Assembly: GCA_965243135.1 (NCBI GenBank)
Contig: OZ251539.1
Coordinates: 2,689,812 to 2,753,811 of the forward strand
DNA: 64,000 nt
Direction of reading: 5' to 3'
From: Alphaproteobacteria bacterium
GTDB taxonomy: Bacteria; Pseudomonadota; Alphaproteobacteria; MPNO01; UBA830
The notes below the pieces were generated by a model, which worked only from the letters and a program-made list of their open reading frames with translations, ran no database searches and was not told where the DNA came from. Both the position numbers and the translations under genes were made by a program. This document shows positions 3,363 through 55,332 of the stretch, one piece after another; the stretch's first letter is position 1; each line of letters starts with the position of its first letter.

Positions 3363-4612
3363 GCCGACCGTTCGCGCCGGAGCGCTTCGGCGGCCTTCCA
3401 TGCCCGCTCCCAGCCGTTCGCCGGCGCTATCGTATCGATCGCCGCCGGGCCCTTTTCGCCGTTCGGCGGCGGCGGCCCGTCGCCGAGCGCCCGGATCAGC
3501 CTGCGGCGGTAGGCGGCGATGCCCTTGTCCGAAGCGCCGAGATGTTCCTTCGTGCGGTCGTAAATCGGTCCGGGAGCCTCGACCGCCCACTGGTCGTGAA
3601 CGTTGATGTCGAAGCCCATGCCCGTAAAGGTGCGCTCCCGCTGTTCTTCGGGATCGAATCCGTATTCGTTGGACCGGTTCTTGCGGGACCGGTAATCGGG
3701 AAGCGTGTAAAGTTCCAGCCGTTGGGCGCGCATGAGGTCGCGTTTCACTTCGGTCTCGAACGCCGTGAAGATCGCGTACCACCAGCAATGCGTATCGTCG
3801 ACGGGAACATGCCATTGGGTGATGTTCATGTCGTTCGACATGGGAATGACGATGGCGTTGGGGAACAATTGGTTCGTGACGCGCACGTGCAACCGCCCGT
3901 CGCCGATTCTGCGGAGCGCGGTCAATCGGAGGCCGTAGCCGGTATCGTCCACGCGGATTTCGGGGCAGGGATGCTCCCGCAGGAGCCGGGTGACCGGAAC
4001 GTCTTCCGTTTCGTCGCCGAACTGCCGACCGTAGTCCTCTTCCCGATCCTCGAAGAAACGGTGGAGAAACGAGGCATGCGCGGGATCGATTCCCACTTCC
4101 AGGGCCTGCAACCAGTTGCACTCCATGAAGCCCTTGAAGGCGAAGGCGAACGCTTCGGGCGCGGCGAAGCAGTCGAACTCCGGGAGTTCGGGCGGGTCGC
4201 CGTTCCCGAGCCAGGCGAACACGATTCCGTTGCGCTCGACGCAGGGGTAGGCGACATGTCGGATTTTTTCCCGGAATCGGCTGCCCGGCGGTTCGGCCGG
4301 CTGCTCCAAGCACCGGCCTGCGGAATCGAACAGCCAGCCGTGGAACGTGCAGCGCAATCCTCCGTCCTCGAGTCGGCCGTAGCGGAGGTCTGCGCCCCGG
4401 TGCGGGCATCGCCGGCCGACCAGGGCGCATTCGCCGGCTTCGTCGCGGAAGAGGACCAGATCCTCGCCCATAAGCCGCACCGGCTTCACCGGGCGGTCGC
4501 CATCCAGTTCCTCGGTCAACGCCGCCGGTTGCCAGTAGCCGCGCATGAGCGAACCGCAGGCCGTTCCCGGCCCCGTTCGGGTCACCAGTTCGTTGTCTGC
4601 CTTGCTAAGCAT
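3344..4612 (-). CDS. Rieske (2Fe-2S) aromatic-ring-hydroxylating oxygenase, alpha-subunit type
   Basis: Full 422-aa ORF with the Rieske motif CPHRGADL...CTFHGW near the N-terminus and a mononuclear-iron type C-terminal domain. Confidence 0.85.
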   Translation of the reverse strand: MLSKADNELVTRTGPGTACGSLMRGYWQPAALTEELDGDRPVKPVRLMGEDLVLFRDEAGECALVGRRCPHRGADLRYGRLEDGGLRCTFHGWLFDSAGRCLEQPAEPPGSRFREKIRHVAYPCVERNGIVFAWLGNGDPPELPEFDCFAAPEAFAFAFKGFMECNWLQALEVGIDPAHASFLHRFFEDREEDYGRQFGDETEDVPVTRLLREHPCPEIRVDDTGYGLRLTALRRIGDGRLHVRVTNQLFPNAIVIPMSNDMNITQWHVPVDDTHCWWYAIFTAFETEVKRDLMRAQRLELYTLPDYRSRKNRSNEYGFDPEEQRERTFTGMGFDINVHDQWAVEAPGPIYDRTKEHLGASDKGIAAYRRRLIRALGDGPPPPNGEKGPAAIDTIAPANGWERAWKAAEALRRERSAWAAPL

Positions 4613-5100
4613 TCGGGGATTCTAACTGCATACCTCGCCGGATCCAATCCGAGGCGTCCGCGCCTCGCGATTTTCGCCGGGCCGCCCGTCTCGCCGCGCC
4701 GCTGGTCCGAACGCGGTCGCGCCGTCTTGGGAAAGCGCCCGCAGGCGACCGCCTGTTCGACCTTTTCCGCCAATCTTGCGAGCCGTTCGCTTGCGAGGAG
4801 CGCGAACAGGCGGCTGCGGGGAGAGTTCAGGCTTTTCCGGGAGGATTCGCGCCACATCGCCGCGTCGTCCGCAGCCATCGGGCCGCGGCTGCGGGATTTC
4901 AAGCGCGAATCCGAGCGGCGCGGCGAAACGGAAACGGTCGCAGAAGTCGAGATACTCCGTCCGGTCCGCGCGAATATCCTCGACAGCGCTCTTGACCTCG
5001 ACGATCATGAACTCGCCCTCCAGCCCCGAGACGTCACCGCGGCGGCCGTTGGGCGCTCGGTCGGCGTTCCCGGTCCGCGGCGCCGAGCGCGACGAGGGAC
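4582..5100 (-). pseudogene. MmcB-family DNA repair protein remnant (N-terminally truncated, one frameshift)
   Basis: Reading upstream of the ATG at 5008 gives NGRRGDVSGLEGEF-MIVEVKSAVEDIRADRTEYLDFCDRFRFAAP, which is the MmcB core pattern. The C-terminal part (GPMAADDAAMWRESSRKSLNSPRSRLFALLASERLARL) is in another frame (track ORF 4582..4902). No in-frame start exists upstream before the yciI-like gene. Confidence 0.45.
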
Positions 5101-5129
5101 GTGGTTTCGGACGCCGGCCCGGCGAGCGG

Positions 5130-5444
5130 TCAATCGCCCTCCGCGGTGGCGGGCGCCGCCGCCGGATTCCATTGTCCGCGCCGCATTCGCGAAATAACGT
5201 ATCGGCTGAACAATCCGGCCTTGCGGAACGGTTCGTCCGCTGCGAACGCGTCGGCGGCGGCGCGAGACGGGACGTTGACGATCAACAGGCTTCCCGTCCG
5301 CGCGTCGCTGTCGTCGGCAAGCGTCGCGCCGCCCAGGACGAGGATATCCTCGTGCCTGGCGAGATAGTCGAAATGAGCTTGCCGGTTTTCTGCGCGAATG
5401 CGGTTGGCGTCGGGCCCGTCGACGCCATGGATCACGTAAAGCAC
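5130..5444 (-). CDS. YciI family protein
   Basis: 104-aa ORF: MLYVIHGVDGPDANRIRAENRQAHFDYL...GSLLIVNVPSRAAADAFAADEPFRKAGLF. Size and pattern are typical of YciI-like proteins. Confidence 0.8.
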   Translation of the reverse strand: MLYVIHGVDGPDANRIRAENRQAHFDYLARHEDILVLGGATLADDSDARTGSLLIVNVPSRAAADAFAADEPFRKAGLFSRYVISRMRRGQWNPAAAPATAEGD

Positions 5445-5462
5445 GCCGCATCTCCGGGCGCT

Positions 5463-6464
5463 TCAGGCGCCGCGCATGAGCTTCAGGATCTCGGTGGCGG
5501 GAATGCCGTTCTCTTGCCATTCGGCCACGACTTCCCGTTCGAGCTTGGCAAGCATCGACAGCGCCTTGCGCACCTCCGCGTCCGGAAGCCTGACGAGATT
5601 GTGGGCGTCTGAGGCGGCCAGAAAGGCCATGCCCTTGGCGTGTTCGGCATCGTAAATTTTTCCTCCGGTCTCGCCCCAGTTGCTGCCGACCGACTTCTCG
5701 ATGATGTCGCGATGCGCCGGCGACAGCTCGTTCCAGCTTTGCTTGTTCATCACGATGAACATGGGCGAGGAGCCGAACGGGATCCCGCTCGCGAAGTGAC
5801 GGGTCACTTCCTTGATCTTGAAAGTGTGCAGAACCGTCGGGGAGACGAGCACGCCGTCCACGGTTCCCCGGGCGAGGGCGTTGTAGAGCTTGGTGATCGG
5901 CATGGGCACCGGCACGGCGCCGAGGGCCTTGATCGACCGCGCAGACATCTGCGAGGGAGTGCGGAGCTTGAGGCCCTTGAGATCGGCGACCGTCTTGATC
6001 GGCTTGTTCCTGGTCATGATGATCGGCGGATCGATAGCCCAAAGCGCCAGCACCTTGACCTGTTCGTATTCCTTGCGGAGCGCGGGGGACTGGGCGTAGG
6101 CCGCGTTGAGGCGGCGGGTGCCGTCCTGCGCGCTGCCCATGACGTTGGAAAGTTCCACCAGGGTCGTGGCCCGGAACAGTTTCGAAGTGTAGCCCTGCAG
6201 GCCGAAAGAGATGTCGGCGACGCGGTCGAGCGCGCGCTTGAACTGCTTGGCCGGGCCCTTGCCCAGCTTGCCGGCCACGAACAGCTTCACCTGAAGACCG
6301 GCGTTCATCGCGTTGATGTCTTTCGCCCACGGCGAAATCATGCGCGCGTTTACAGGGTGCTTCGGTCCGGTAAACGACGCGACTTTGAGTTCCGCGGCAT
6401 CTGCCTGAGGCACTGCGAGCAGGCCGACTGCCGCGGTCAGAACGAGAGAAGTGCGCTTCATCAT
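5463..6464 (-). CDS. TRAP transporter substrate-binding protein (DctP family)
   Basis: Start MMKRTSLVLTAAVGLLAVPQADA (signal peptide) at 6464, preceded by AGGAGG. The body is DctP-like. It lies adjacent to the DctM and DctQ genes. Confidence 0.85.
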   Translation of the reverse strand: MMKRTSLVLTAAVGLLAVPQADAAELKVASFTGPKHPVNARMISPWAKDINAMNAGLQVKLFVAGKLGKGPAKQFKRALDRVADISFGLQGYTSKLFRATTLVELSNVMGSAQDGTRRLNAAYAQSPALRKEYEQVKVLALWAIDPPIIMTRNKPIKTVADLKGLKLRTPSQMSARSIKALGAVPVPMPITKLYNALARGTVDGVLVSPTVLHTFKIKEVTRHFASGIPFGSSPMFIVMNKQSWNELSPAHRDIIEKSVGSNWGETGGKIYDAEHAKGMAFLAASDAHNLVRLPDAEVRKALSMLAKLEREVVAEWQENGIPATEILKLMRGA

Positions 6465-8750: not shown

Positions 8751-8827
8751 TGGCGCACCCGACAGGATTCGAACCTGTGACCTCTGGCTTCGGAGGCCAG
8801 CGCTCTATCCGGCTGAGCTACGGGTGC
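8751..8827 (-). tRNA. tRNA-Arg (anticodon CCG)
   Basis: The reverse complement folds as a perfect cloverleaf. Elements are acceptor GCACCCG/CGGGTGC, D arm GCTC/GAGC, anticodon arm CTGGC-CTCCGAA-GCCAG, T arm ACAGG-TTCGAAT-CCTGT, discriminator G and encoded CCA. Confidence 0.93.
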
Positions 8828-41103: not shown

Positions 41104-41323
41104 TTCAATGCGCGCCGTTCGAACCCGGAAAGGTTATGTCGCGCGCGGCGCAAGGTTCGGGTGCACCGCACTCAGAGTCGCATGCTGCCGGGCGGACATG
41201 CTTTCGTACTGACTTCAATGCGCGCCGTTCGAACCCGGAAAGGTTATGTCGCGCGCGGCGCAAGGTTCGGGTGCACCGCACTCAGAGTCGCATGCTGCCG
41301 GGCGGACATGCTTTCGTACTGAC
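41104..41323. repeat. perfect 110-bp tandem duplication (2 copies)
   Basis: 41104..41213 and 41214..41323 read identically (ttcaatgcgcgccgttcgaacccggaaaggttatgtcgcgcgcggcgcaagg...ctttcgtactgac). The region is intergenic. Confidence 0.9.
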
Positions 41324-41543: not shown

Positions 41544-41912
41544 TCAGCGGCGCTTGTCGAAAAACGCGAAAAGTTCCTCGGAGGTCCGACTGACGGCGAC
41601 GTGGGCCGTCGCTTCCTGAAACCGTTCGGGGTCGACGATGCCGTCGAGCATGGATTTCAAGCGTTCTCCCGCTTCGTCGCCGAACCGTTCGGCCGCAAGC
41701 CTGGCCATGAGTTCGCGGTTCAAAGCCATGGACGCCTCGGCCCTTGCGTCGGACGCCTCGGCTCTTGCGTCGAACGCCTCGGCCCTTTCCACGGCCGCGT
41801 CGGCTCTTGCGTCGGCCGCAAGCGCCCTTTCCACGGCCGCATCGTAATGTTGAGCGAATCCGGTCATCGATCCTTCAAGTGCAGTCTCTGGCAAGAAGTT
41901 CCACGGCCCCAA
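41544..41912 (-). CDS. free-standing copy (C) of the Rpn C-terminal helical module
   Basis: 122-aa ORF (TTG start). An internal ATG (MTGFAQHYD) at 41867 has GAAGGA upstream. It ends ...ERLKSMLDGIVDPERFQEATAHVAVSRTSEELFAFFDKRR, nearly identical to the C-terminus of the 42241..43740 protein. Confidence 0.5.
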   Translation of the reverse strand: MGPWNFLPETALEGSMTGFAQHYDAAVERALAADARADAAVERAEAFDARAEASDARAEASMALNRELMARLAAERFGDEAGERLKSMLDGIVDPERFQEATAHVAVSRTSEELFAFFDKRR

Positions 41913-41923
41913 AATCGCCCGCT

Positions 41924-42229
41924 TCAGCGGCGCTTGTCGAAAAACGCGAAAAGTTCATCGGAGGTCAGACTGTCGGCGACATGCGCCGTCGCTTCCTGAA
42001 ATCGTTCGGGGTCGACGATGCCGTCGAGCATGGATTTCAAGCGTTCTCCCGCTTCGGCGCCGAACCTTTCGGCCGCAAGCTTGGCCACGAGTTCGCGGCT
42101 CAAAGCCACGGCCGCGTCGGCCCTCGCGTCGGACGCAAGCGCCCTTTCCACGGCCGCATCGTAATGTTGAGCGAATCCGGTCATCGATCCTTCAAGTGCA
42201 GTCTCTGGCAAGAAGTTCCACGGCCCCAA
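41924..42229 (-). CDS. free-standing copy (B) of the Rpn C-terminal helical module
   Basis: 101-aa ORF (TTG start; internal ATG at 42184 with GAAGGA upstream). The last 40 aa differ from the parent C-terminus by one residue (M for V). Confidence 0.5.
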   Translation of the reverse strand: MGPWNFLPETALEGSMTGFAQHYDAAVERALASDARADAAVALSRELVAKLAAERFGAEAGERLKSMLDGIVDPERFQEATAHVADSLTSDELFAFFDKRR

Positions 42230-42240
42230 AATCGCCCGCT

Positions 42241-43740
42241 TCAGCGGCGCTTGTCGAAAAACGCGAAAAGTTCATCGGAGGTCAGACTGTCGGCGACATG
42301 CGCCGTCGCTTCCTGAAATCGTTCGGGGTCGACGATGCCGTCGAGCACGGATTTCAAGCGTTCTCCCGCTTCGGTGCCGAACCTTTCGGCCGCTAGCTTG
42401 GCCACGAGTTCGCGGTTCAAAGCCATGGACGCCTCGGCCCTCGCGTCGGACGCCTCGGCCCTCGCGTCGGACGCAAGTGCCCTTTCCACGGCCGCATCGT
42501 AATGTTGAGCGAATCCGGTCATCAGTATCGATCCTTCAAGTGCAGTCTCAGGGAACCATTCTGACCCGAGCGCCGTCATTGTCAACAGAAGATGGCGCAA
42601 CGGTTCGTCCACCGGCAGAAGCCTGTCAAGCTCCTCGCAGGCGCGCAACGTGTCGGCGGGGTCGCCTTGATGCAGCCGGAAATAAGCCGCCGCGGGATTG
42701 TCTTGGTACGCGGAATAGTCCATCCGTTGGACGTCGTGCACCACATACCGCGCCGGCGTTCTGTAGGGCTCGAGGAAGGCATGCTTCGGCGGAGCTATCA
42801 GCCTTTCCGCGTCGTCGGCTGCATTCCAGGCGTCGGCTCCCGTGTGGACGACGACCGGAACGGTGAACGGAACCCGGTCGTCGGCATCCAGGAGATCCTT
42901 GTGGTTCCGTCGGATGGTTCTTGTGAGTTCGATCCGGTAGGACGCCATCCGTTCCGCCATAGCGCGGTCGACAGCGGATTGGAACTCGACGATGAAGGAA
43001 AGCGGCTCTGAGTCCTGCGGTTCGAGGACCAAGATCATATCGCTGCGGAGGGCACGGCTGAGCGAGTGGGACACGAGTTCCCCGTCGATGCGTCGAATGG
43101 CCGCGTCTTCCGGCACCAGATCGGCCGGCAGGACAGTCCGCAGCAGGCCCCGCGCCATTACGGGATACCCGAAAACGAACCGGGCTATCGCGTCGTGCGG
43201 ATAACGTCCCGGCCTGCCCAGCATCCGCAGCGGGGTCCGGTCTCGCGGGTCCTTGAGAGCAGGGTTCCCGCCGCATCCGACCAAAGCGACGAACGCGGCG
43301 TAGTTCTCGTTGCGGGCGGCGTAGTGAAGCGGCGAGAACCCCCGATTGTCCGCGGCGTCGAGACCGGCGCCCGCCGCGGCCAGAGCCTCGATGGCGGCCG
43401 CATTCCCGTCGCGGGCAGCGTAGTGAAGCGCCGTTCGCCCGTTCCGGTCCCCGGCGTCGAGGCCGGCGCCCGCCGCGGCCAGAGCCTCGATGGCGGCCGC
43501 GTTCCCGTAGCGAGCGGCGTAGTGAAGCGCCGTTCGCCCGTTCCGGTCCCCGGCGTCGAGGCCGGCGCCCGCCGCGGCCAAGGAAGCGATGTGCGCCGCG
43601 CCCTTTTTCGGGACCCTGGCGGCGTAATGGAGAAGGGTCCGGCCCTTTCGGTCTTTCGGGTTGTTGTGCCGACGGAACAATTCGACGATGAATTCTGGGG
43701 ACCCCGTCCTGACGGCGGCGGCGAGCTGTCGTTTCTTCAT
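42241..43740 (-). CDS. ankyrin-repeat protein fused to an Rpn-family (YhgA-like, PD-(D/E)XK) recombination-promoting nuclease/putative transposase
   Basis: Start MKKRQLAAAV at 43740. About four ankyrin repeats (GRTLLHYAAR..., GRTALHYAARYGNAAAIEALAAAGAGLDA x2, GFSPLHYAARNEN). The Rpn core follows: HDAIARFVFGYP...LRSDMILVLE...SFIVEFQSAVDRAMAERMASY...VPVVVHTGADAW...YVVHDVQRMD, then a helical C-terminus. Confidence 0.75.
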   Translation of the reverse strand: MKKRQLAAAVRTGSPEFIVELFRRHNNPKDRKGRTLLHYAARVPKKGAAHIASLAAAGAGLDAGDRNGRTALHYAARYGNAAAIEALAAAGAGLDAGDRNGRTALHYAARDGNAAAIEALAAAGAGLDAADNRGFSPLHYAARNENYAAFVALVGCGGNPALKDPRDRTPLRMLGRPGRYPHDAIARFVFGYPVMARGLLRTVLPADLVPEDAAIRRIDGELVSHSLSRALRSDMILVLEPQDSEPLSFIVEFQSAVDRAMAERMASYRIELTRTIRRNHKDLLDADDRVPFTVPVVVHTGADAWNAADDAERLIAPPKHAFLEPYRTPARYVVHDVQRMDYSAYQDNPAAAYFRLHQGDPADTLRACEELDRLLPVDEPLRHLLLTMTALGSEWFPETALEGSILMTGFAQHYDAAVERALASDARAEASDARAEASMALNRELVAKLAAERFGTEAGERLKSVLDGIVDPERFQEATAHVADSLTSDELFAFFDKRR

Positions 43741-44243
43741 TCTTCCGATCCCTGCTTGCGACTGTCGTGCGCTCAATGTTTCCGAACTCCGTTTCCGCCC
43801 CTGAGAAGCGGACCGCGGACCGCCGCCGAGGCGCGGCCCGCAGGCTTCGTCGCAGCCGAACGCCGGACATCGTCCGTCCGGCAAGGCTGCGGCTGCGTTC
43901 GCCTTAATGCCATGAAACGGCGGAACCGTCAAGGGGGAAATTCGCCGACGAAGCATCGAGGGTTCGGCGGCGCCGGAAGACGCGTTCCGGCATTCCCGGC
44001 GGTTCCGACGACGACGGATTCTTTCGAAGCGCGCTGGCGTCCCGCGAAAATCCCGCGTTCCCGCCGTTCGGGTCGTCTCCGCTCGCCCTTCGGAGACGCT
44101 TGCCTGGACGCCGCGCAGCCGGCCTGAACCGGAAAGATCGTCCGGCGCCCTGACGCCGCGACCGCGTTCCGCAGGCTTGACAGCCGTTTCCAGGGGGCGT
44201 AAACGTCGGGCCGACGAGGGCCCAATTTTTCGAGATCCGCAAG

Positions 44244-50383: not shown

Positions 50384-51510
50384 CGCAGGTTTCCCGCGTT
50401 CGGGAGGGCGGCCTCGATCGCGCGCCGGACGGCCTCCGGGTCGGCCTGGGGGGCGACGAAGGCGTCGCCTACGGCACGCGCCAGGACGAAGGCGATCCGC
50501 CCGTCCCGGACTTTCTTGTCCCGGCTCATGCGCCGGATGAGCGCATCGGGGTCGCAGCGGCGGCCCGCCGGCAGGGCGACGGGCAATCCGACCGTCTCGA
50601 AATGCCGGCGGACGCGGGCCACTTCGGCGTACGCGCACAGGCCGAGCGCCGCCGAGAGCTCGAAAGCCATGACCATGCCGACGGCGACCGCCTCGCCGTG
50701 GAGCATCCGGTACCCGGATTCCGCTTCGATGGCGTGGCCGAAGGTATGGCCGAAGTTCAGGAGCGTTCGCGCGCCCGCTTCGCGTTCGTCCCTTCCGACG
50801 ACGTCCGCCTTCACGGCGCAGCTGGCGCGGACGGCATGGCGGCGCGCCGGGCCGTTCTCGGCGACGACCTGGGCGCCGTTGCGTTCGAGCCAGGCGAAGA
50901 ATCCCGGATCGCGGATCAGGCCGTATTTGACCACTTCGGCGTAGCCGGCGAGGAGGTGCGGTCGCGGCAGCGTGTCGAGCATCGCCGTGTCCGCGAGGAC
51001 GAGCCTCGGTTGGTGGAACGCGCCCAGGAGATTCTTGCCGTGGCGCGTATTCACGCCGGTCTTGCCGCCTACCGAACTGTCGACCTGCGACAGCAGGGTC
51101 GTTGGAATCTGGACGAAGTTCAGGCCGCGCAGGATCATGCTGGCGGCGAAACCGGCGATGTCGCCGACGACGCCGCCGCCGAGGGCGATCAGGACCGAGG
51201 AGCGTTCCGGCGCGGAATCGAGCGCCGCGGTCGCGACGCGTTCCACCGTTTCCAGGCTTTTGGTCCGTTCTCCCGGAGGCAGGACTATGGAGGCCGGCCG
51301 GACTCCCGCTTCGGACAACGCCTTCCGGACGCTTTCGAGATGCAGTCCGGCGACCGTTTCGTCGGTGACGATCCAGCACGGGCGCGATCCGGCGAGGTCC
51401 CTGACGCGGGCGGCGCCGCTGCCGCCGGGCGCGGCCACGCCGTCGCCGATGACGATTTCGTAGGACCGTTTCCCGAGTTCGACCCGGAGACTCTCTTCCT
51501 TCCGCTTCAT
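50380..51510 (-). CDS. aroB: 3-dehydroquinate synthase
   Basis: Start MKRKEESLRVELG at 51510, overlapping the aroK stop (ATGA). Motifs GGGVVGDIAGFAA, VDSSVGGKTG and NFGHTFGHA. Confidence 0.9.
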   Translation of the reverse strand: MKRKEESLRVELGKRSYEIVIGDGVAAPGGSGAARVRDLAGSRPCWIVTDETVAGLHLESVRKALSEAGVRPASIVLPPGERTKSLETVERVATAALDSAPERSSVLIALGGGVVGDIAGFAASMILRGLNFVQIPTTLLSQVDSSVGGKTGVNTRHGKNLLGAFHQPRLVLADTAMLDTLPRPHLLAGYAEVVKYGLIRDPGFFAWLERNGAQVVAENGPARRHAVRASCAVKADVVGRDEREAGARTLLNFGHTFGHAIEAESGYRMLHGEAVAVGMVMAFELSAALGLCAYAEVARVRRHFETVGLPVALPAGRRCDPDALIRRMSRDKKVRDGRIAFVLARAVGDAFVAPQADPEAVRRAIEAALPNAGNLR

Positions 51511-52058
51511 GCCGGCTGCGGTCCTTCGAAACAGCGCTGCAGCGCGCGCAGCACGGCGCGGGCGGCGGCGTCGGCCGATCGGTCGCCGGAGGCGACCGTC
51601 AGATCCGCCTCGGCATAGAACGGGTAGCGTTCCGCGATCAGGCGTTCCATGACTTGGCGCCGGTCCCCCATGTTCAGCAGCGGCCGGTCGCTGCGTCGCG
51701 AAACGCGTTCGAGGAGGACTTCGAGATCGGCCTTCAGCCACACGGAAACGCCGTTCAGGCGGACGTTGCGCCGGGTCTCCGCGTCCGCGAACGCGCCGCC
51801 GCCGGTCGCGATCACGGCGTTCCGCCGCTTCATCAGCCGGGCGATCACCCGCCGCTCGCCGTCGCGAAACGCCGGTTCGCCGTATTTCGCGAAGATGTCC
51901 TCGATCGAGCAATTGGCCGCCGCTTCTATCTCCCTGTCGGCATCGATGAATTCGCGGTCGAGCAGGGCCGCCAGCCGCTGTCCGACGGTCGTCTTTCCCG
52001 CTCCCATCAGACCGACCAGAACGATGGGCTTTTCAGCATACTGCAGGGCGACTGTCAT
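51507..52058 (-). CDS. aroK: shikimate kinase
   Basis: Full 183-aa ORF with Walker A GLMGAGKTTVG. Confidence 0.9.
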   Translation of the reverse strand: MTVALQYAEKPIVLVGLMGAGKTTVGQRLAALLDREFIDADREIEAAANCSIEDIFAKYGEPAFRDGERRVIARLMKRRNAVIATGGGAFADAETRRNVRLNGVSVWLKADLEVLLERVSRRSDRPLLNMGDRRQVMERLIAERYPFYAEADLTVASGDRSADAAARAVLRALQRCFEGPQPA

Positions 52059-52502
52059 TGGAAGATTCGCTTAAGCCCAAGGCGTTCTCGCCGTCGGAAT
52101 TTCCGGGAGGCGGCCGCCTTGCGCGGGGCCGGCCACCGGGGTTCGCCCGGTCGCGCTTCCACCTCCGCAGCCGGATCTCGGGCCACGCGCCCCGGGACGA
52201 CCCGCGCACGGAAGGAAAAAGCGTTGTCCTCGGGCGGATCCTCCACCTTCAGCCGGCGCGCGTCAACGGGAAAATAGCGCTGCCGCAGCTGGAAGTCCGG
52301 CATATTTCGGAAAGATCCCTTCCGAGCGCGGCCGGCCAAAACGGCTCGCCGTCGCGAACGACGATCGGCAACATTGCCGCCGCCGCCATCTTCGCGCCGC
52401 CGCGGACGAACTTCCCGTACGACGCCGACGTGCAGGAAGCGCGGGATCGTCTCCCGGTCGACGCTCGACTGGAACTCCAGCGGCGGAAGCGCTTCGCCCT
52501 GG
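52055..52502 (-). pseudogene. Rpn-family (YhgA-like) nuclease gene, distal fragment downstream of the CRISPR array; frameshifted and truncated
   Basis: Track ORF 52055..52609 reads ...RVRLRAEDGQGEALPPLEFQSSVDRETIPRFLHVG, matching the parent family core xEFQSxVDR. The next block, SYGKFVRGGAKMAAAAMLPIVVRDGEPFW, is in another frame. Reading then returns to the first frame (LRQRYFPVDARRLKVEDPPEDNAF). The stop overlaps the aroK ATG. Confidence 0.6.
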
Positions 52503-53140
52503 CCGTCTTCCGCGCGCAGGCGGACGCGCCCTGGAAGGGATGCGCGACCAGATGGCGGACGCCCCGTCTTCCGCGCGCAGGCGGACGCGCCGCTGGCCGA
52601 CAAGCGCACTTTTCCGGCGATGGACCGTCTTCCGCGCGCAGGCGGACGTGCCGTCTAAAACGTGTTGAGAGAAAATTCCCTCAACCCGTCTTCCGCGCGC
52701 AGGCGGACGTGCCCCCGGCATCCGATCCGCCCGGTGGGCCGGACCGCCGTCTTCCGCGCGCAGGCGGACGTGCCCCCGATCGGCGGCCGCGCATGGCATG
52801 TGATCACCCGTCTTCCGCGCGCAGGCGGACGTGCCCTGTTCGCGGTCGAGGCCATCGCCCAGCACGAGCCGTCTTCCGCGCGCAGGCGGACGTGCCTGAA
52901 TCCCATACTTTTTGCAAGATTGTACGCAACCGTCTTCCGCGCGCAGGCGGACGCGCCGGCGCCTCGCGCAATGTCCGCGTGGGACACGCGCCGTCTTCCG
53001 CGCGCAGGCGGACGTGCCTGAATCCCATACTTTTTGCAAGATTGTACGCAACCGTCTTCCGCGCGCAGGCGGACGCGCCAGCCCCGGTCCCGTCGGCATT
53101 GCGCGGATCATCCCGTCTTCCGCGCGCAGGCGGACGCGCC
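52503..53140. CRISPR. CRISPR array: 11 repeats of 28 nt (CCGTCTTCCGCGCGCAGGCGGACGYGCC), 10 spacers of 33 nt, period exactly 61 bp (type I-E-like geometry)
   Basis: Repeat starts are 52503, 52564, 52625, 52686, 52747, 52808, 52869, 52930, 52991, 53052 and 53113. The repeat has an internal palindrome TCCGC-n6-GCGGA. Position 24 (Y) is C in repeats 1, 2, 8, 10 and 11, and T in repeats 3-7 and 9. Spacers are unique except spacer 7 = spacer 9. Confidence 0.9.
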
Positions 53141-53364
53141 AGACCATGTCGGCGCGGCTCTGCCGCAGGTCGTTGTCGACGAACCGCGGCGGGGGATCGC
53201 GGCAGGGAAGTCCGGTTCTCCGCCGAAGTCCGCCCGAAGGAAGCCGTGCGCCAGGTCGGCCACGGACCGTGGGTTGTCGAAAAGCGTTTGCATGGCGTCG
53301 TCGCAGATGTCGCGAACCAGACCGGCTCCCGTCCGGCGAGCCTCGCGGCGGCTTCTTTCTTCAT
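53141..53364 (-). pseudogene. Rpn-family nuclease gene, proximal (N-terminal) fragment upstream of the CRISPR array; frameshifted
   Basis: One minus-strand frame reads GLVRDICDDAMQTLFDNPRSVADLAHGFLRADFGGEPDFPAAIP. After a C5 run, the next frame reads PPRFVDNDLRQSRADMVW and runs straight into repeat 11. This matches the Rpn N-terminal pattern (HDxxFKxxF...P...FxDxDLRxxxxDxxW). The possible original ATG is at 53364; the start is uncertain. Confidence 0.55.
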
Positions 53365-53468: not shown

Positions 53469-53609
53469 ATGAAAACGTTGCACATTGCCGTCTTGGCGGG
53501 CGCCTTGCTGGTTCTGGGAGGAGGAGCTGCGTTGCTTGCCGTTTGGGACATCCCCGCCCCATCCGCCGAGGTCGAAAGAATCATTCCGAATGACCGCTTT
53601 CCTCGCTGA
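53469..53609 (+). CDS. small membrane protein (46 aa), hypothetical
   Basis: MKTLHIAVLAGALLVLGGGAALLAVWDIPAPSAEVERIIPNDRFPR has a single TM helix. It overlaps the next gene start by 20 nt. Support is weak. Confidence 0.35.
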   Translation: MKTLHIAVLAGALLVLGGGAALLAVWDIPAPSAEVERIIPNDRFPR

Positions 53610-55332
53610 TCGCCGGCCGCGGATGATCGCCGGCCTGCTGGCCGCGGCGATTTCCTTCGGAGCTGCGGCGCAGCCCGTCGAACTTCGGCGGCCGACTCCC
53701 GACGAGGCCCGTCCCGCGCCGCCGACGCCTCCGCCGGTCGAATCGTCCGGCGAGGAAGCCGGAGCTTCCCGGCCCGCGGACGAGATCGTTTTCGATACGC
53801 TGGACCCGATCGATCCCGATACCTTCGGACTGATCGGCGCGAATCAGGACGGTTTCGGCGTCGACGTCTGGCAGGGAGCGGACTGGCAAACCGTCAGCGG
53901 GCTGATGTCGCAAATCCCGGCGCTCACGACATCGGCCACGATGCGGGCGCTCGCCTCCCGGCTGCTCCTGTCCCGAGCTTTCGTGCCCGCGGGCAAGCCG
54001 GCGAACGCAAGTTTCGTCGGGCTGCGCGTCGAACGGCTTCTGGACATGGCCATGATCGAGGAGGCGCTCGCCCTGTTGAAGGCGGTTCCGGTCCAGCGGC
54101 GCGATGCGACGTTCTCGAAGGTCGAAGTCGAGACGCTCTTCTTCGACAACAGGAATGCGGAGGCATGCGCGCGGGTCGAGGAGGTCGCCGGAAGATTCGC
54201 CGACGTGTACTGGAATCAGGCGCAGGCCTTCTGCGTCGCTCTCGGAGGCGATCAGGCGCGCACCGCGCTCATCGCCGAACTGCTCCGCGAACGGGAGGAA
54301 GAAATAGAGCCGGCGTTCTTCACCGCGCTGGAATCGCTCGCCGGGTTGGAGGTCTCCGAGGTCGAGTCGCTCGACGCGCCCGGCGGACTGCTTCTCTCCA
54401 TGATGCGCGCCGCCGGCCTGAAGCTGCCCGGGCCGCTGGCGAAGAGCGCCGATCCGGCGATTCTCCGTTGGGTCGCGAGGTCGCCGAACGCCGATCTCGA
54501 GGTTCGCCTCGCGGCGGCCGAAAAAGCGCTGGGCGCACATGTTCTCGCGCCCGCCGACGTAACGCGGGCGTATCGGGGCATACGATTTACCGACGAGGAA
54601 CTGGCCAATCCGGTCTCGCGAGCCGAAGCGGACTGGGGACCGCGAGGCCGGGCGCTTCTTATGCGTGCGGCGTCAGCGCAGAGTTCTCCGCTCGCCAAGG
54701 CCGAACTGTTGAGGCGCGCATGGCAGATCGGGCGCGAGCGAGGCGGATACGGCGTGATGGCACGGATGGGCGCTTCGGAGGTTTCGGGCATAACGCCGTC
54801 ATCGGAACTGACGTGGTTCGCGGAGGACGCGGCTCGCGCCTTGTTCGGCGCGGGCCGCATCGCCGAGGCAATGGCCTGGTACGGCGCCGTGGCGGGACCG
54901 AGCGCAGCCCTGGACGAGGCGCGGAACGCGGAGGCCGGCCTGTGGCCGCTCGCGGTGCTGGCCGACAGCGAGACGCCCTTCGATCCCGACCGGTTGACGC
55001 AGTGGTACGCCGACCTGCGGCAATCGGCGCCCGACGAAGCCCGCGGCAGGGCTCTGACCTTGTTCGGACTGCTGGAGGCCGCCGGCCGGAACGTTCCGTG
55101 GCGGACGCTGCTGGACGCGCCGACGGTCGGAAGCGGGACGGATCGGGCATGGGCGCGCAGCCTCGCGGCCGCGGCGGAGGAGGGCCGGATCGGCGAGACC
55201 GTTCTGCTCTCGGCCGTCTTGGCCGGCGCCGGCGCGGGCCCGCCGGAGCTTGCGACCGCGCTCCGACGCGTCGGGCTCGAGGAGGAAGGACGGCGCCTGG
55301 CACTGGAAATCGCCGTCGCGGCCGGGTTGTGA
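53590..55332 (+). CDS. secreted hypothetical protein (580 aa) upstream of xerD
   Basis: MTAFLADRRPRMIAGLLAAAISFGAAAQP signal-like N-terminus, a Pro-rich linker, then a helical Ala/Leu-rich body. Its stop overlaps the xerD GTG (GTGA). Confidence 0.7.
   Translation: MTAFLADRRPRMIAGLLAAAISFGAAAQPVELRRPTPDEARPAPPTPPPVESSGEEAGASRPADEIVFDTLDPIDPDTFGLIGANQDGFGVDVWQGADWQTVSGLMSQIPALTTSATMRALASRLLLSRAFVPAGKPANASFVGLRVERLLDMAMIEEALALLKAVPVQRRDATFSKVEVETLFFDNRNAEACARVEEVAGRFADVYWNQAQAFCVALGGDQARTALIAELLREREEEIEPAFFTALESLAGLEVSEVESLDAPGGLLLSMMRAAGLKLPGPLAKSADPAILRWVARSPNADLEVRLAAAEKALGAHVLAPADVTRAYRGIRFTDEELANPVSRAEADWGPRGRALLMRAASAQSSPLAKAELLRRAWQIGRERGGYGVMARMGASEVSGITPSSELTWFAEDAARALFGAGRIAEAMAWYGAVAGPSAALDEARNAEAGLWPLAVLADSETPFDPDRLTQWYADLRQSAPDEARGRALTLFGLLEAAGRNVPWRTLLDAPTVGSGTDRAWARSLAAAAEEGRIGETVLLSAVLAGAGAGPPELATALRRVGLEEEGRRLALEIAVAAGL

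Follow-up and report, generated by a model that had tools for sequence, protein, structure and literature searches.

Whether a natural CRISPR array can begin as a piece of a protein-coding gene is the question raised by a locus in a 64,000-nucleotide (nt) stretch of DNA from an Alphaproteobacteria bacterium (GenBank assembly GCA_965243135.1, contig OZ251539.1, positions 2,689,812 to 2,753,811 of the forward strand; hereafter the window). Just upstream of aroK, this window carries a CRISPR array lying within the remains of an Rpn-family (Transposase_31) nuclease gene. The array exists and differs between strains, and its repeat is almost certainly native Rpn coding sequence from which the array itself grew. 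We consider it likely that the locus is a naturally born neo-CRISPR array inside the Rpn gene, a segment of which was, judging from the sequence, probably used repeatedly as an ectopic target by a type I-E-like Cas1-Cas2. The origin of CRISPR arrays and repeats has so far been argued from indirect evidence; here one chromosomal site keeps a whole natural series (absence of the gene; an intact gene that holds the repeat sequence a single time; arrays with 1, 2 and 10 spacers), and the repeat is plainly coding sequence for a conserved protein motif, which makes the process directly testable.

An array of 11 repeats within a decayed Rpn gene

On the + strand the repeat unit of the array is CCGTCTTCCGCGCGCAGGCGGACG[C/T]GCC (28 nt). 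Its 19-nt core (TTCCGCGCGCAGGCGGACG) was found in 11 exact copies (0 mismatches) at 61-base-pair (bp) steps (52508...53136), against 0.33 copies expected by chance and with 0 of 100 shuffles reaching 11, and it occurred nowhere in the window outside the array. Nine of the ten spacers are distinct, spacer 7 being identical to spacer 9. The locus shows the generic hallmarks of CRISPR, namely at least three near-identical direct repeats in the 23-47 bp range, constant spacing and unique spacers of uniform length. The initial annotation, made from the letters of the window, had described 11 repeats with a 61-bp period and nine distinct spacers, and this description was borne out by the core count, the spacing and the spacer comparison. 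Two forms of the repeat are mixed along the array, with C at position 25 in repeats 1, 2, 8, 10 and 11 and T in repeats 3 to 7 and 9, and both copies of the duplicated spacer sit between one T repeat and one C repeat. These two spacers are AT-rich (36% GC versus 66% for the window).

Read on the minus strand, the right flank of the array (...PPPRFVDNDLRQSRADMVWRVRLRAEDG) leads into repeat 11: it runs as ...FDNPRSVADLAHGFLRADFGGE.. and then ..PPPRFVDNDLRQSRADMV, and on into the repeat as WRVRLRAEDG. At the other end, repeat 1 (minus strand: RVRLRAEDGQGEALPPLEFQSSVDRETIPRFL) reads RVRLRAEDG and continues as QGEALPPLEFQSSVDRETIPRFL. Collapsing the array to a single repeat yields a continuous minus-strand reading frame, and to this extent the initial proposal of an array sitting in-frame inside an Rpn gene holds; it does not hold for the gene as it now stands, because the 610 bp contributed by the array are not divisible by 3 and the gene is a pseudogene.

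For comparison we used 17 related loci from independent metagenome assemblies (referred to by handles such as L011), which were found via the exact aroK protein, homologues of the reconstructed Rpn and other members of the aroK cluster. Compared with the intact gene of L011, the start codon of the window copy is changed from ATG to CTG at 53320, the frame is shifted by a 13-bp insertion in the 5' part and by several further indels, and a deletion has removed about 700 bp of the C-terminal coding region that L002 and L011 still possess. Given the lost start codon, the frameshifts, the C-terminal deletion and the 610-bp split, the window copy is clearly a pseudogene. The residues of the D...E-x-Q nuclease core can still be read in the window (RADMV..., LEFQS), but without an intact open reading frame (ORF), which is found in L011. 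The ATG at 53364 falls in what corresponds to the 5' untranslated region of the intact homologue.

The assignment of the flanks to the Rpn family was upheld by hidden Markov model (HMM) searches. A window reconstruction guided by the related strain L001 scored 30.8 bits against Pfam Transposase_31 (PF04754; E = 2.7e-7, cut-off 21) and the intact L011 homologue scored 76.8 bits; a first, cruder reconstruction reached 18 bits against the same cut-off, and the two flanks searched separately gave no match to this family.

The repeat encodes the most conserved motif of the Rpn subfamily

The Transposase_31 alignment of the L011 protein (E = 2.2e-21) covers residues 6-180 and runs through residues 62-71, which are encoded by the repeat. 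Residues 6-131 of the same protein align to the NCBIfam RpnA model (E = 5.9e-12), with scores below the RpnA equivalog cut-off (NF007361; 45.6 vs 583 bits) and below the TIGR01784 cut-off (26.3 vs 52.1 bits). The Rpn subfamily of the window is thus no RpnA equivalog but a relative. The intact L011 copy has the D...E-x-Q core followed by C-terminal EQGR repeats, and a sequence search of the PDB with the intact Rpn returned no match.

We performed a profile search of 1.84 billion representative proteins using an alignment of P0002 and P0001 as a query, yielding a total of 4,040 relatives, and then aligned the best 148 of these (representatives of 50%-identity clusters) together with the L011 protein. 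The repeat-encoded WRVRLRAEDG proved to be the most conserved motif of the subfamily: W62 is conserved in all 148 relatives, R63 in 125, R65 in 110, V64 in 92 and R67 in 73, and D59, just ahead of the motif, in 146. The repeat-encoded segment is followed by a variable turn and then by an invariant E-F-Q-S. Since the repeat encodes a conserved motif of the nuclease core, it is ordinary, strongly constrained coding sequence and no wandering CRISPR repeat. A 61-residue periodicity, which is the signature that such an array would leave in an ORF running across it, was seen in none of the proteins compared, among them the 148 relatives, except for the array ORF of the window (P0169), which served as a positive control. 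The initial view of the repeat as native gene sequence is sustained both by this family-wide WRVR motif and by the exact 28-mer, which is present as a single copy in L011 and in L002-L005.

Related loci carry the repeat sequence once, several times or not at all

Single-copy and empty-site states exist in relatives. In L009, L010 and L016-L018 there is no Rpn gene and a 582/585-amino-acid (aa) gene abuts aroK, with flanks about 86-91% identical to those of the window. L011 (730-kb contig) has an intact Rpn ORF of 366 aa in which the exact 28-mer occurs a single time (...DLRQSRADMVWRVRLRAEDGEVDVFLLLEFQSSVDRE...), its flanks being 93% (aroK side) and 89% (far side) identical. An Rpn gene with one 28-mer and a frameshift is found in L002 (248 kb; flank identity 93-94%), L003 and L004, and L005 carries a second Rpn gene copy with one exact 28-mer elsewhere in the genome, so that flank identity is not applicable. 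The window-type truncated pseudogene recurs in two loci, with two repeats and one spacer in L006 (flank 94.8% identical to the window) and with three repeats and two spacers in L001 (97.8%). L001, L003, L004 and L006 are short metagenome contigs, and their spacer counts are lower bounds.

The expectation that homologous Rpn genes would carry the 28-mer once and no spacers agrees with what was found in L011 (intact and syntenic at aroK), L002-L004 and L005, where the single copy occupies the same reading-frame position. Across the three array-bearing strains we counted 13 spacers (10 in the window, 2 in L001 and 1 in L006), all of 33 nt and 12 of them distinct, with none common between strains. 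Spacer content thus varies while the repeat and the flanks (95-98% identical) persist, as is characteristic of CRISPR. Misassembly had been raised as a concern at the outset; in L001 and L006, from independent samples, this repeat is likewise arrayed at this junction, with other spacers in between. Simple relocation of a cas-adjacent array had been raised as well, and our sequence searches turned up no cas-adjacent array sharing the repeat or the flanks.

The related contigs come mostly from the PANK22-1 metagenome series (SAMN1229xxxx; sample names of L001, L003, L004, L009 and L012-L018), with further samples SRR17504027/8, SRR18249439/57 and ERZ25068248/400. Some of them show features of their own. 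L006 is a Logan contig whose first 30 nt (TGTCTAGAAAAAAATGTAGCTAATCGGAAG) are rich in AT and bear no relation to the 5' flank of Rpn in the window and L001; they represent either a contig-end artefact or a further rearrangement beside the array. In L005, the second Rpn copy (3954-5980) is 96% identical to L002, lies in another genomic context and has two incomplete copies of its C-terminal region in tandem behind it; this contig has 1x long-read coverage, and some of its frameshifts may be errors. L011 (264-2617) and L002 (7727-9984) contain an extra 2.26 kb between the conserved 578/585-aa gene and the Rpn gene, which is absent from the window lineage and holds, on the opposite strand, an ORF of 328 aa that matched neither Pfam nor NCBIfam. 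Also in this lost segment lies the putative promoter region that precedes the intact Rpn gene.

Decay of the gene and history of the array

The Rpn gene is dead in all array-bearing lineages found. Because the window, L001 and L006 have truncations and several frameshifts in common, their common ancestor already had a dead gene, and it very likely already bore an array. The lack of shared spacers would then mean that the spacers were replaced entirely, or that the array shrank to a single repeat and expanded anew; alternatively, arrays could have been born independently on the same dead gene. The gene would have died before the first insertion or been killed by it.

The window pseudogene is about 17% divergent from the intact gene, with 36, 34 and 25 differences at the three codon positions, and this even spread argues for neutral decay. 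One segment departs from this pattern: a run of 61 nt, made up of the 28-mer, 1 nt after it and 32 nt on its 5' side (gene orientation), is 100% identical to the L011 gene, compared with about 83% for the rest. By our own estimate such a run has a chance probability of about 1e-3. In L006 there are three or four changes within the 32-nt flank. Continued use as a repeat would be a natural reason for the conservation of the 28-mer, and conservation of the 32-nt flank could stem from a leader-like role, from gene conversion by intact paralogues or from luck.

A type I-E-like integrase as the probable maker of the array

All 13 repeat-spacer units seen have the same geometry, 28 + 33 = 61. Type I-E Cas1-Cas2 is known to leave products of this geometry, in which 28 bp are duplicated and 33 bp inserted. 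Slippage is excluded by the twelve unrelated inserts, all equally long and each bounded by an exact duplication of constant length. When the array was searched against 72,556 plasmids, the best match was an array directly downstream of casA-casE on plasmid pRLB1-9.2 of Streptomyces sp. RLB1-9, a type I-E array with a 61-bp period and the repeat GTCCTCCCCGCGCAGGCGGGGGTGAGCCG. The + strand repeat of the window matches this repeat at 20 of 26 positions in its T variant (19 for the ancestral C variant) and the minus strand at 13 of 28, and we therefore oriented the array along the + strand. From the 28 + 33 geometry and the 20/26 identity we infer a type I-E-like integrase; together with the single-copy homologues, these are the grounds on which we support the ectopic Cas1-Cas2 origin first proposed in the initial annotation. 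The palindrome of the repeat lies at the middle of the duplicated unit, no more than 1-2 nt off the canonical register, which would be the outcome of a ruler-type choice of the two cut sites.

The course of events could have been as follows. An Rpn-family (Transposase_31) nuclease gene would have inserted between the conserved 615-aa gene and aroK, bringing with it the conserved motif D-M-V-W-R-V-R-L-R-A-E-D-G, which holds a 28-bp GC-rich, centrally palindromic sequence resembling a type I-E repeat. A type I-E-like Cas1-Cas2, encoded elsewhere or since lost, may have taken this 28-mer as an ectopic target; at each event it would have made staggered cuts 28 bp apart and inserted a 33-bp prespacer, with the 28-mer being duplicated by gap repair. 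Repeated events would have led to 1, 2 or 10 spacers depending on the strain, and the dead gene would have decayed neutrally. If the origin is indeed of type I-E, array-bearing lineages should have, or have recently lost, a type I-E locus with a canonical repeat close to GTCTTCCGCGCGCAGGCGGACGTG.

Several observations weigh against this origin. The 20/26 match was reached by 3 of 20,000 shuffles, a significance that is inflated since the Streptomyces comparator was picked as the best match of the search, and, in its best alignment, the canonical repeat lies 2 nt out of step with the duplicated unit. Neither the 64-kb window nor the fetched flanks yielded a cas gene: tblastn with type I-E Cas3 and CasA-E came back empty, and a Pfam scan of 28 further window ORFs, mostly the largest, revealed no cas family. 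The whole array searched against phage and plasmid collections gave no spacer match, and six spacer cores had no match in IMG/VR. The first and last bases of the 13 spacers show no conserved base. The hairpin of the repeat has a 5-bp stem and -8.7 to -10.4 kcal/mol, no better than shuffles, compared with a 7-bp stem and -15.5 kcal/mol for the canonical type I-E repeat. There is no AT-rich leader beside the array, whose two flanks are former coding sequence rich in GC, and neither strand has a sigma-70-like promoter there. Lastly, the C/T mosaic of the repeats is unexplained by simple leader-end polarised growth from either end; speculatively, both the mosaic and the duplicated spacer could be accommodated if a leaderless array took up inserts at its internal repeats, or if arrays recombined with one another.

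Some of these points have a bearing of their own. E. coli type I-E spacers carry a G at one end derived from the PAM (protospacer-adjacent motif); such a PAM-derived end base is not universal among type I-E systems. As no protospacer was found, the spacers provide no PAM and no direct proof of a foreign origin; among the window and all fetched loci they have no self-targets. The only meaningful match in the phage and plasmid collections was the repeat-to-repeat similarity with Streptomyces type I-E arrays. The genes recognised in the Pfam scan were all housekeeping or metabolic ones, for example thrS, TRAP transporters, cobS/cobT, a sulfatase and accA. Searches for the repeat in other places were equally empty: the 24-nt repeat core had 0 matches in GTDB species-representative genomes and in JGI metagenomes, scanning GTDB genomes under guidance of the Rpn protein alignment gave 165 pattern stretches, none of them a relative (the lineage being absent from both the GTDB representatives and the JGI metagenomes), translations of both strands of the array against 5.8 billion proteins returned only the window's own ORF and no second array with similar repeat peptides, and Rfam, at gathering and permissive thresholds, gave no match to a CRISPR-DR family.

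Other explanations of the locus

Recombination or a mobile element could instead have carried a canonical array from a cas locus into the Rpn gene; the repeat would then not be native to the gene, and the in-frame fit would be coincidental. Transfer or the loss of cas genes is a frequent origin of isolated arrays (Shmakov 2020, as cited in PMC13142298), and the site upstream of aroK is prone to rearrangement (empty, Rpn-bearing and other states). Yet the exact 28-mer stands once and spacer-free in the intact Rpn ORF and in four other copies, it encodes the most conserved family motif, with its W present throughout relatives that lack any array signature, and the Pfam alignment passes straight through the residues it encodes; furthermore, no other array or ORF with the repeat peptides turned up among the proteins searched, and the 24-mer is absent from the GTDB genomes and JGI metagenomes searched. 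We regard a transferred array as extremely unlikely and this explanation as effectively refuted. A maker other than Cas1-Cas2 (replication slippage or tandem duplication, another integrase or transposase, or Rpn acting on its own gene) might be favoured by the lack of cas genes nearby, by the one duplicated spacer and by the nature of the host gene, Rpn proteins being known to promote recombination. The twelve unrelated 33-nt inserts bounded by exact 28-bp duplications are, however, incompatible with slippage, the fixed duplication and insert lengths are those of type I-E, with an equal 61-bp period in the Streptomyces array, and we know of no transposase or Rpn activity that gives a 28-bp duplication with a 33-bp insert; such a maker is very unlikely. 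We give almost no credence to an assembly artefact, or to single-repeat states that would be collapsed assemblies: four of the related loci are short metagenome contigs and L006 begins with unrelated sequence, but the window array sits on a 6.1-Mb contig, arrays with different spacers occupy the same junction in independent samples, and the single-copy state is found on the 730-kb and 248-kb contigs and on three short-read contigs.

A further possibility accepts the same origin and adds that the array is a working immune locus today, transcribed, processed by a Cas6e encoded elsewhere, served by Cascade in trans and still acquiring spacers. The wholly different spacers of strains with 95-98% identical flanks suggest recent turnover, the 28-mer and its 32-nt flank are perfectly kept in the window while the rest of the pseudogene has decayed, the derived T variant is one base nearer to the canonical type I-E repeat, and isolated arrays can function in trans (PMC13142298). 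On the other side stand the lack of a detectable promoter or leader, a weak and non-canonical hairpin, the absence of protospacer matches and the absence of cas genes from the window and fetched flanks, and we think present-day function rather unlikely, if worth entertaining. In a more specific form, which we rate as distinctly doubtful, the locus would be a living leaderless array that is served in trans by a type I-E system and grows by non-polarised integration at any repeat, which would account for the C/T mosaic and for the absence of shared spacers; the array may even be drifting toward the canonical repeat, the derived T being one base closer. More broadly, thousands of Rpn genes conserve the motif coding for WRVR(L/F)R, and in GC-rich genomes it could be a recurrent seed of new arrays for type I-E integrases, which would be one concrete natural route for CRISPR repeats to arise from coding DNA.

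Relation to known arrays and to Rpn genes

Returning to ectopic type I-E-like integration as the origin that we prefer, array birth by off-target integration is already known as a kind, until now from over-expression in E. coli and by inference for some isolated arrays. Over-expressed Cas1-Cas2 makes off-target neo-CRISPR arrays in E. coli, and the evidence for two other species is circumstantial only, according to the descriptions of this work in bioRxiv 10.1101/148544 and PMC7054753 (Nivala 2018). Off-target spacer acquisition is one of three origins proposed for isolated arrays (Shmakov 2020, CRISPR J 3:535, cited in PMC13142298), and de novo repeat generation has been used as an argument for a convergent origin of repeats (PMC6546382). 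As in the neo-CRISPR arrays of Nivala, Shipman and Church (2018, Nat Microbiol 3:310), the first repeat at our locus is made from genomic sequence that was not CRISPR, every event brings a repeat-length duplication and a spacer-length insert, and an array that lies away from cas genes results when the site is used again. Those arrays were obtained by laboratory over-expression, whereas the window array is natural, has up to 10 spacers and lies within a protein-coding motif; its integrase is deduced from the product, and the pre-insertion state, an intact one-copy ORF, survives in a sister lineage of the window.

Most isolated arrays reportedly share their repeat with a cas-adjacent array of the same or a related genome. 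The window array resembles isolated arrays (Shmakov 2020) in having no cas genes within tens of kb and differs from them in that its repeat is demonstrably a piece of a gene. With the Streptomyces pRLB1-9.2 array it shares the 61-bp period, the + strand repeat identity and a central GC-rich palindrome; unlike that array, it has no adjacent cas genes, no AT-rich leader and a stem of 5 bp instead of 7 bp. Compared with canonical type I-E arrays in general, its duplicated unit is offset by 1-2 nt from the canonical repeat boundaries and has no CRISPR-DR match in Rfam. The host gene belongs to the same Rpn (YhgA-like, Transposase_31) family as E. coli RpnA, from which the window copy differs in being a truncated, frameshifted and array-split pseudogene.

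What is new here is a natural, multi-spacer case whose ancestral sequence is identified beyond reasonable doubt as the coding sequence of a conserved protein motif, with the pre-insertion, minimal and expanded states all surviving in relatives. The locus also illustrates a cost: a defence-type nuclease gene can be destroyed by ectopic integration, or a gene of this kind that has died beforehand can be colonised.

Features of the locus and its neighborhood

The coordinates of the features discussed above are collected in Table 1.

Table 1. Features of the Rpn-aroK locus; positions refer to the window unless a related locus is named
Feature	Position	Strand	Remarks
CRISPR array	52503-53140	+	11 repeats x 28 nt, 10 spacers x 33 nt, period 61
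Repeat 1	52503-52530	+	C variant = ancestral gene sequence; minus strand: RVRLRAEDG, then QGEALPPLEFQS
Repeats 3-7 with spacers	52625-52896	+	T (derived) at repeat position 25
Spacer 7	52897-52929	+	TGAATCCCATACTTTTTGCAAGATTGTACGCAA, 36% GC; identical to spacer 9 (53019-53051)
Repeat 9	52991-53018	+	Derived T at position 25
Repeat 11	53113-53140	+	C variant; on minus strand in frame after ...DLRQSRADMV
32-nt flank beside repeat 11	53141-53172	-	Part of the 61-nt run identical with L011 (53113-53172 + 1 nt, collapsed coordinates)
5' part of Rpn (Transposase_31) pseudogene	53141-53320	-	Homologous to codons 1-61 of the intact gene
Middle part of Rpn pseudogene, past the repeat	52144-52502	-	Catalytic E-F-Q-S (about 52477), LPIVV.DG..W segment; frameshifted
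Remnant tail and junction to aroK	52059-52143	-	From comparison with L002/L011
aroK (shikimate kinase)	51507-52058	-	Conserved neighbor, used to find related strains
Conserved 615-aa ORF	53485-55332	+	Other neighbor; next to aroK in genomes without the Rpn gene
Empty-type junction	L009 3867-4001; L010, L016-L018		

The 615-aa ORF occurs in every related locus and matched no Pfam or NCBIfam family; beyond it lie xerD and accA. Relatives show at least three states of the junction immediately upstream of aroK (...CGAATCTTCC-ATG): empty, occupied by an Rpn cassette, or occupied by unrelated sequence (L019, 1-100). Judged by these states, the junction looks like an insertion or rearrangement hot spot at which the Rpn gene is accessory.

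A second gene with an Rpn domain lies on the minus strand of the window at 42241-43956 and encodes a 571-aa protein in which at least three ankyrin repeats are fused to a Transposase_31 domain (Pfam E = 1.3e-11). It had initially been presented as an intact paralog closely matching the array's host gene, a resemblance that was overstated: the BLASTP E-value is 0.08 and the gene contains neither the WRVR motif nor a 28-mer resembling the repeat. With this E-value the protein was too distant to guide the reconstruction of the ancestral sequence and was rejected for that use. This gene is accompanied by tandem repeats of its own (41104-41323, 41730-42483 and 43348-43580), with 110-bp and 317-bp tandem duplications on its 3' side (copies 100% and 97% identical) and a 99-bp repeat within its ankyrin region. 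The sole Rfam match in the window at the gathering threshold is one tRNA gene (8754-8827, minus strand).

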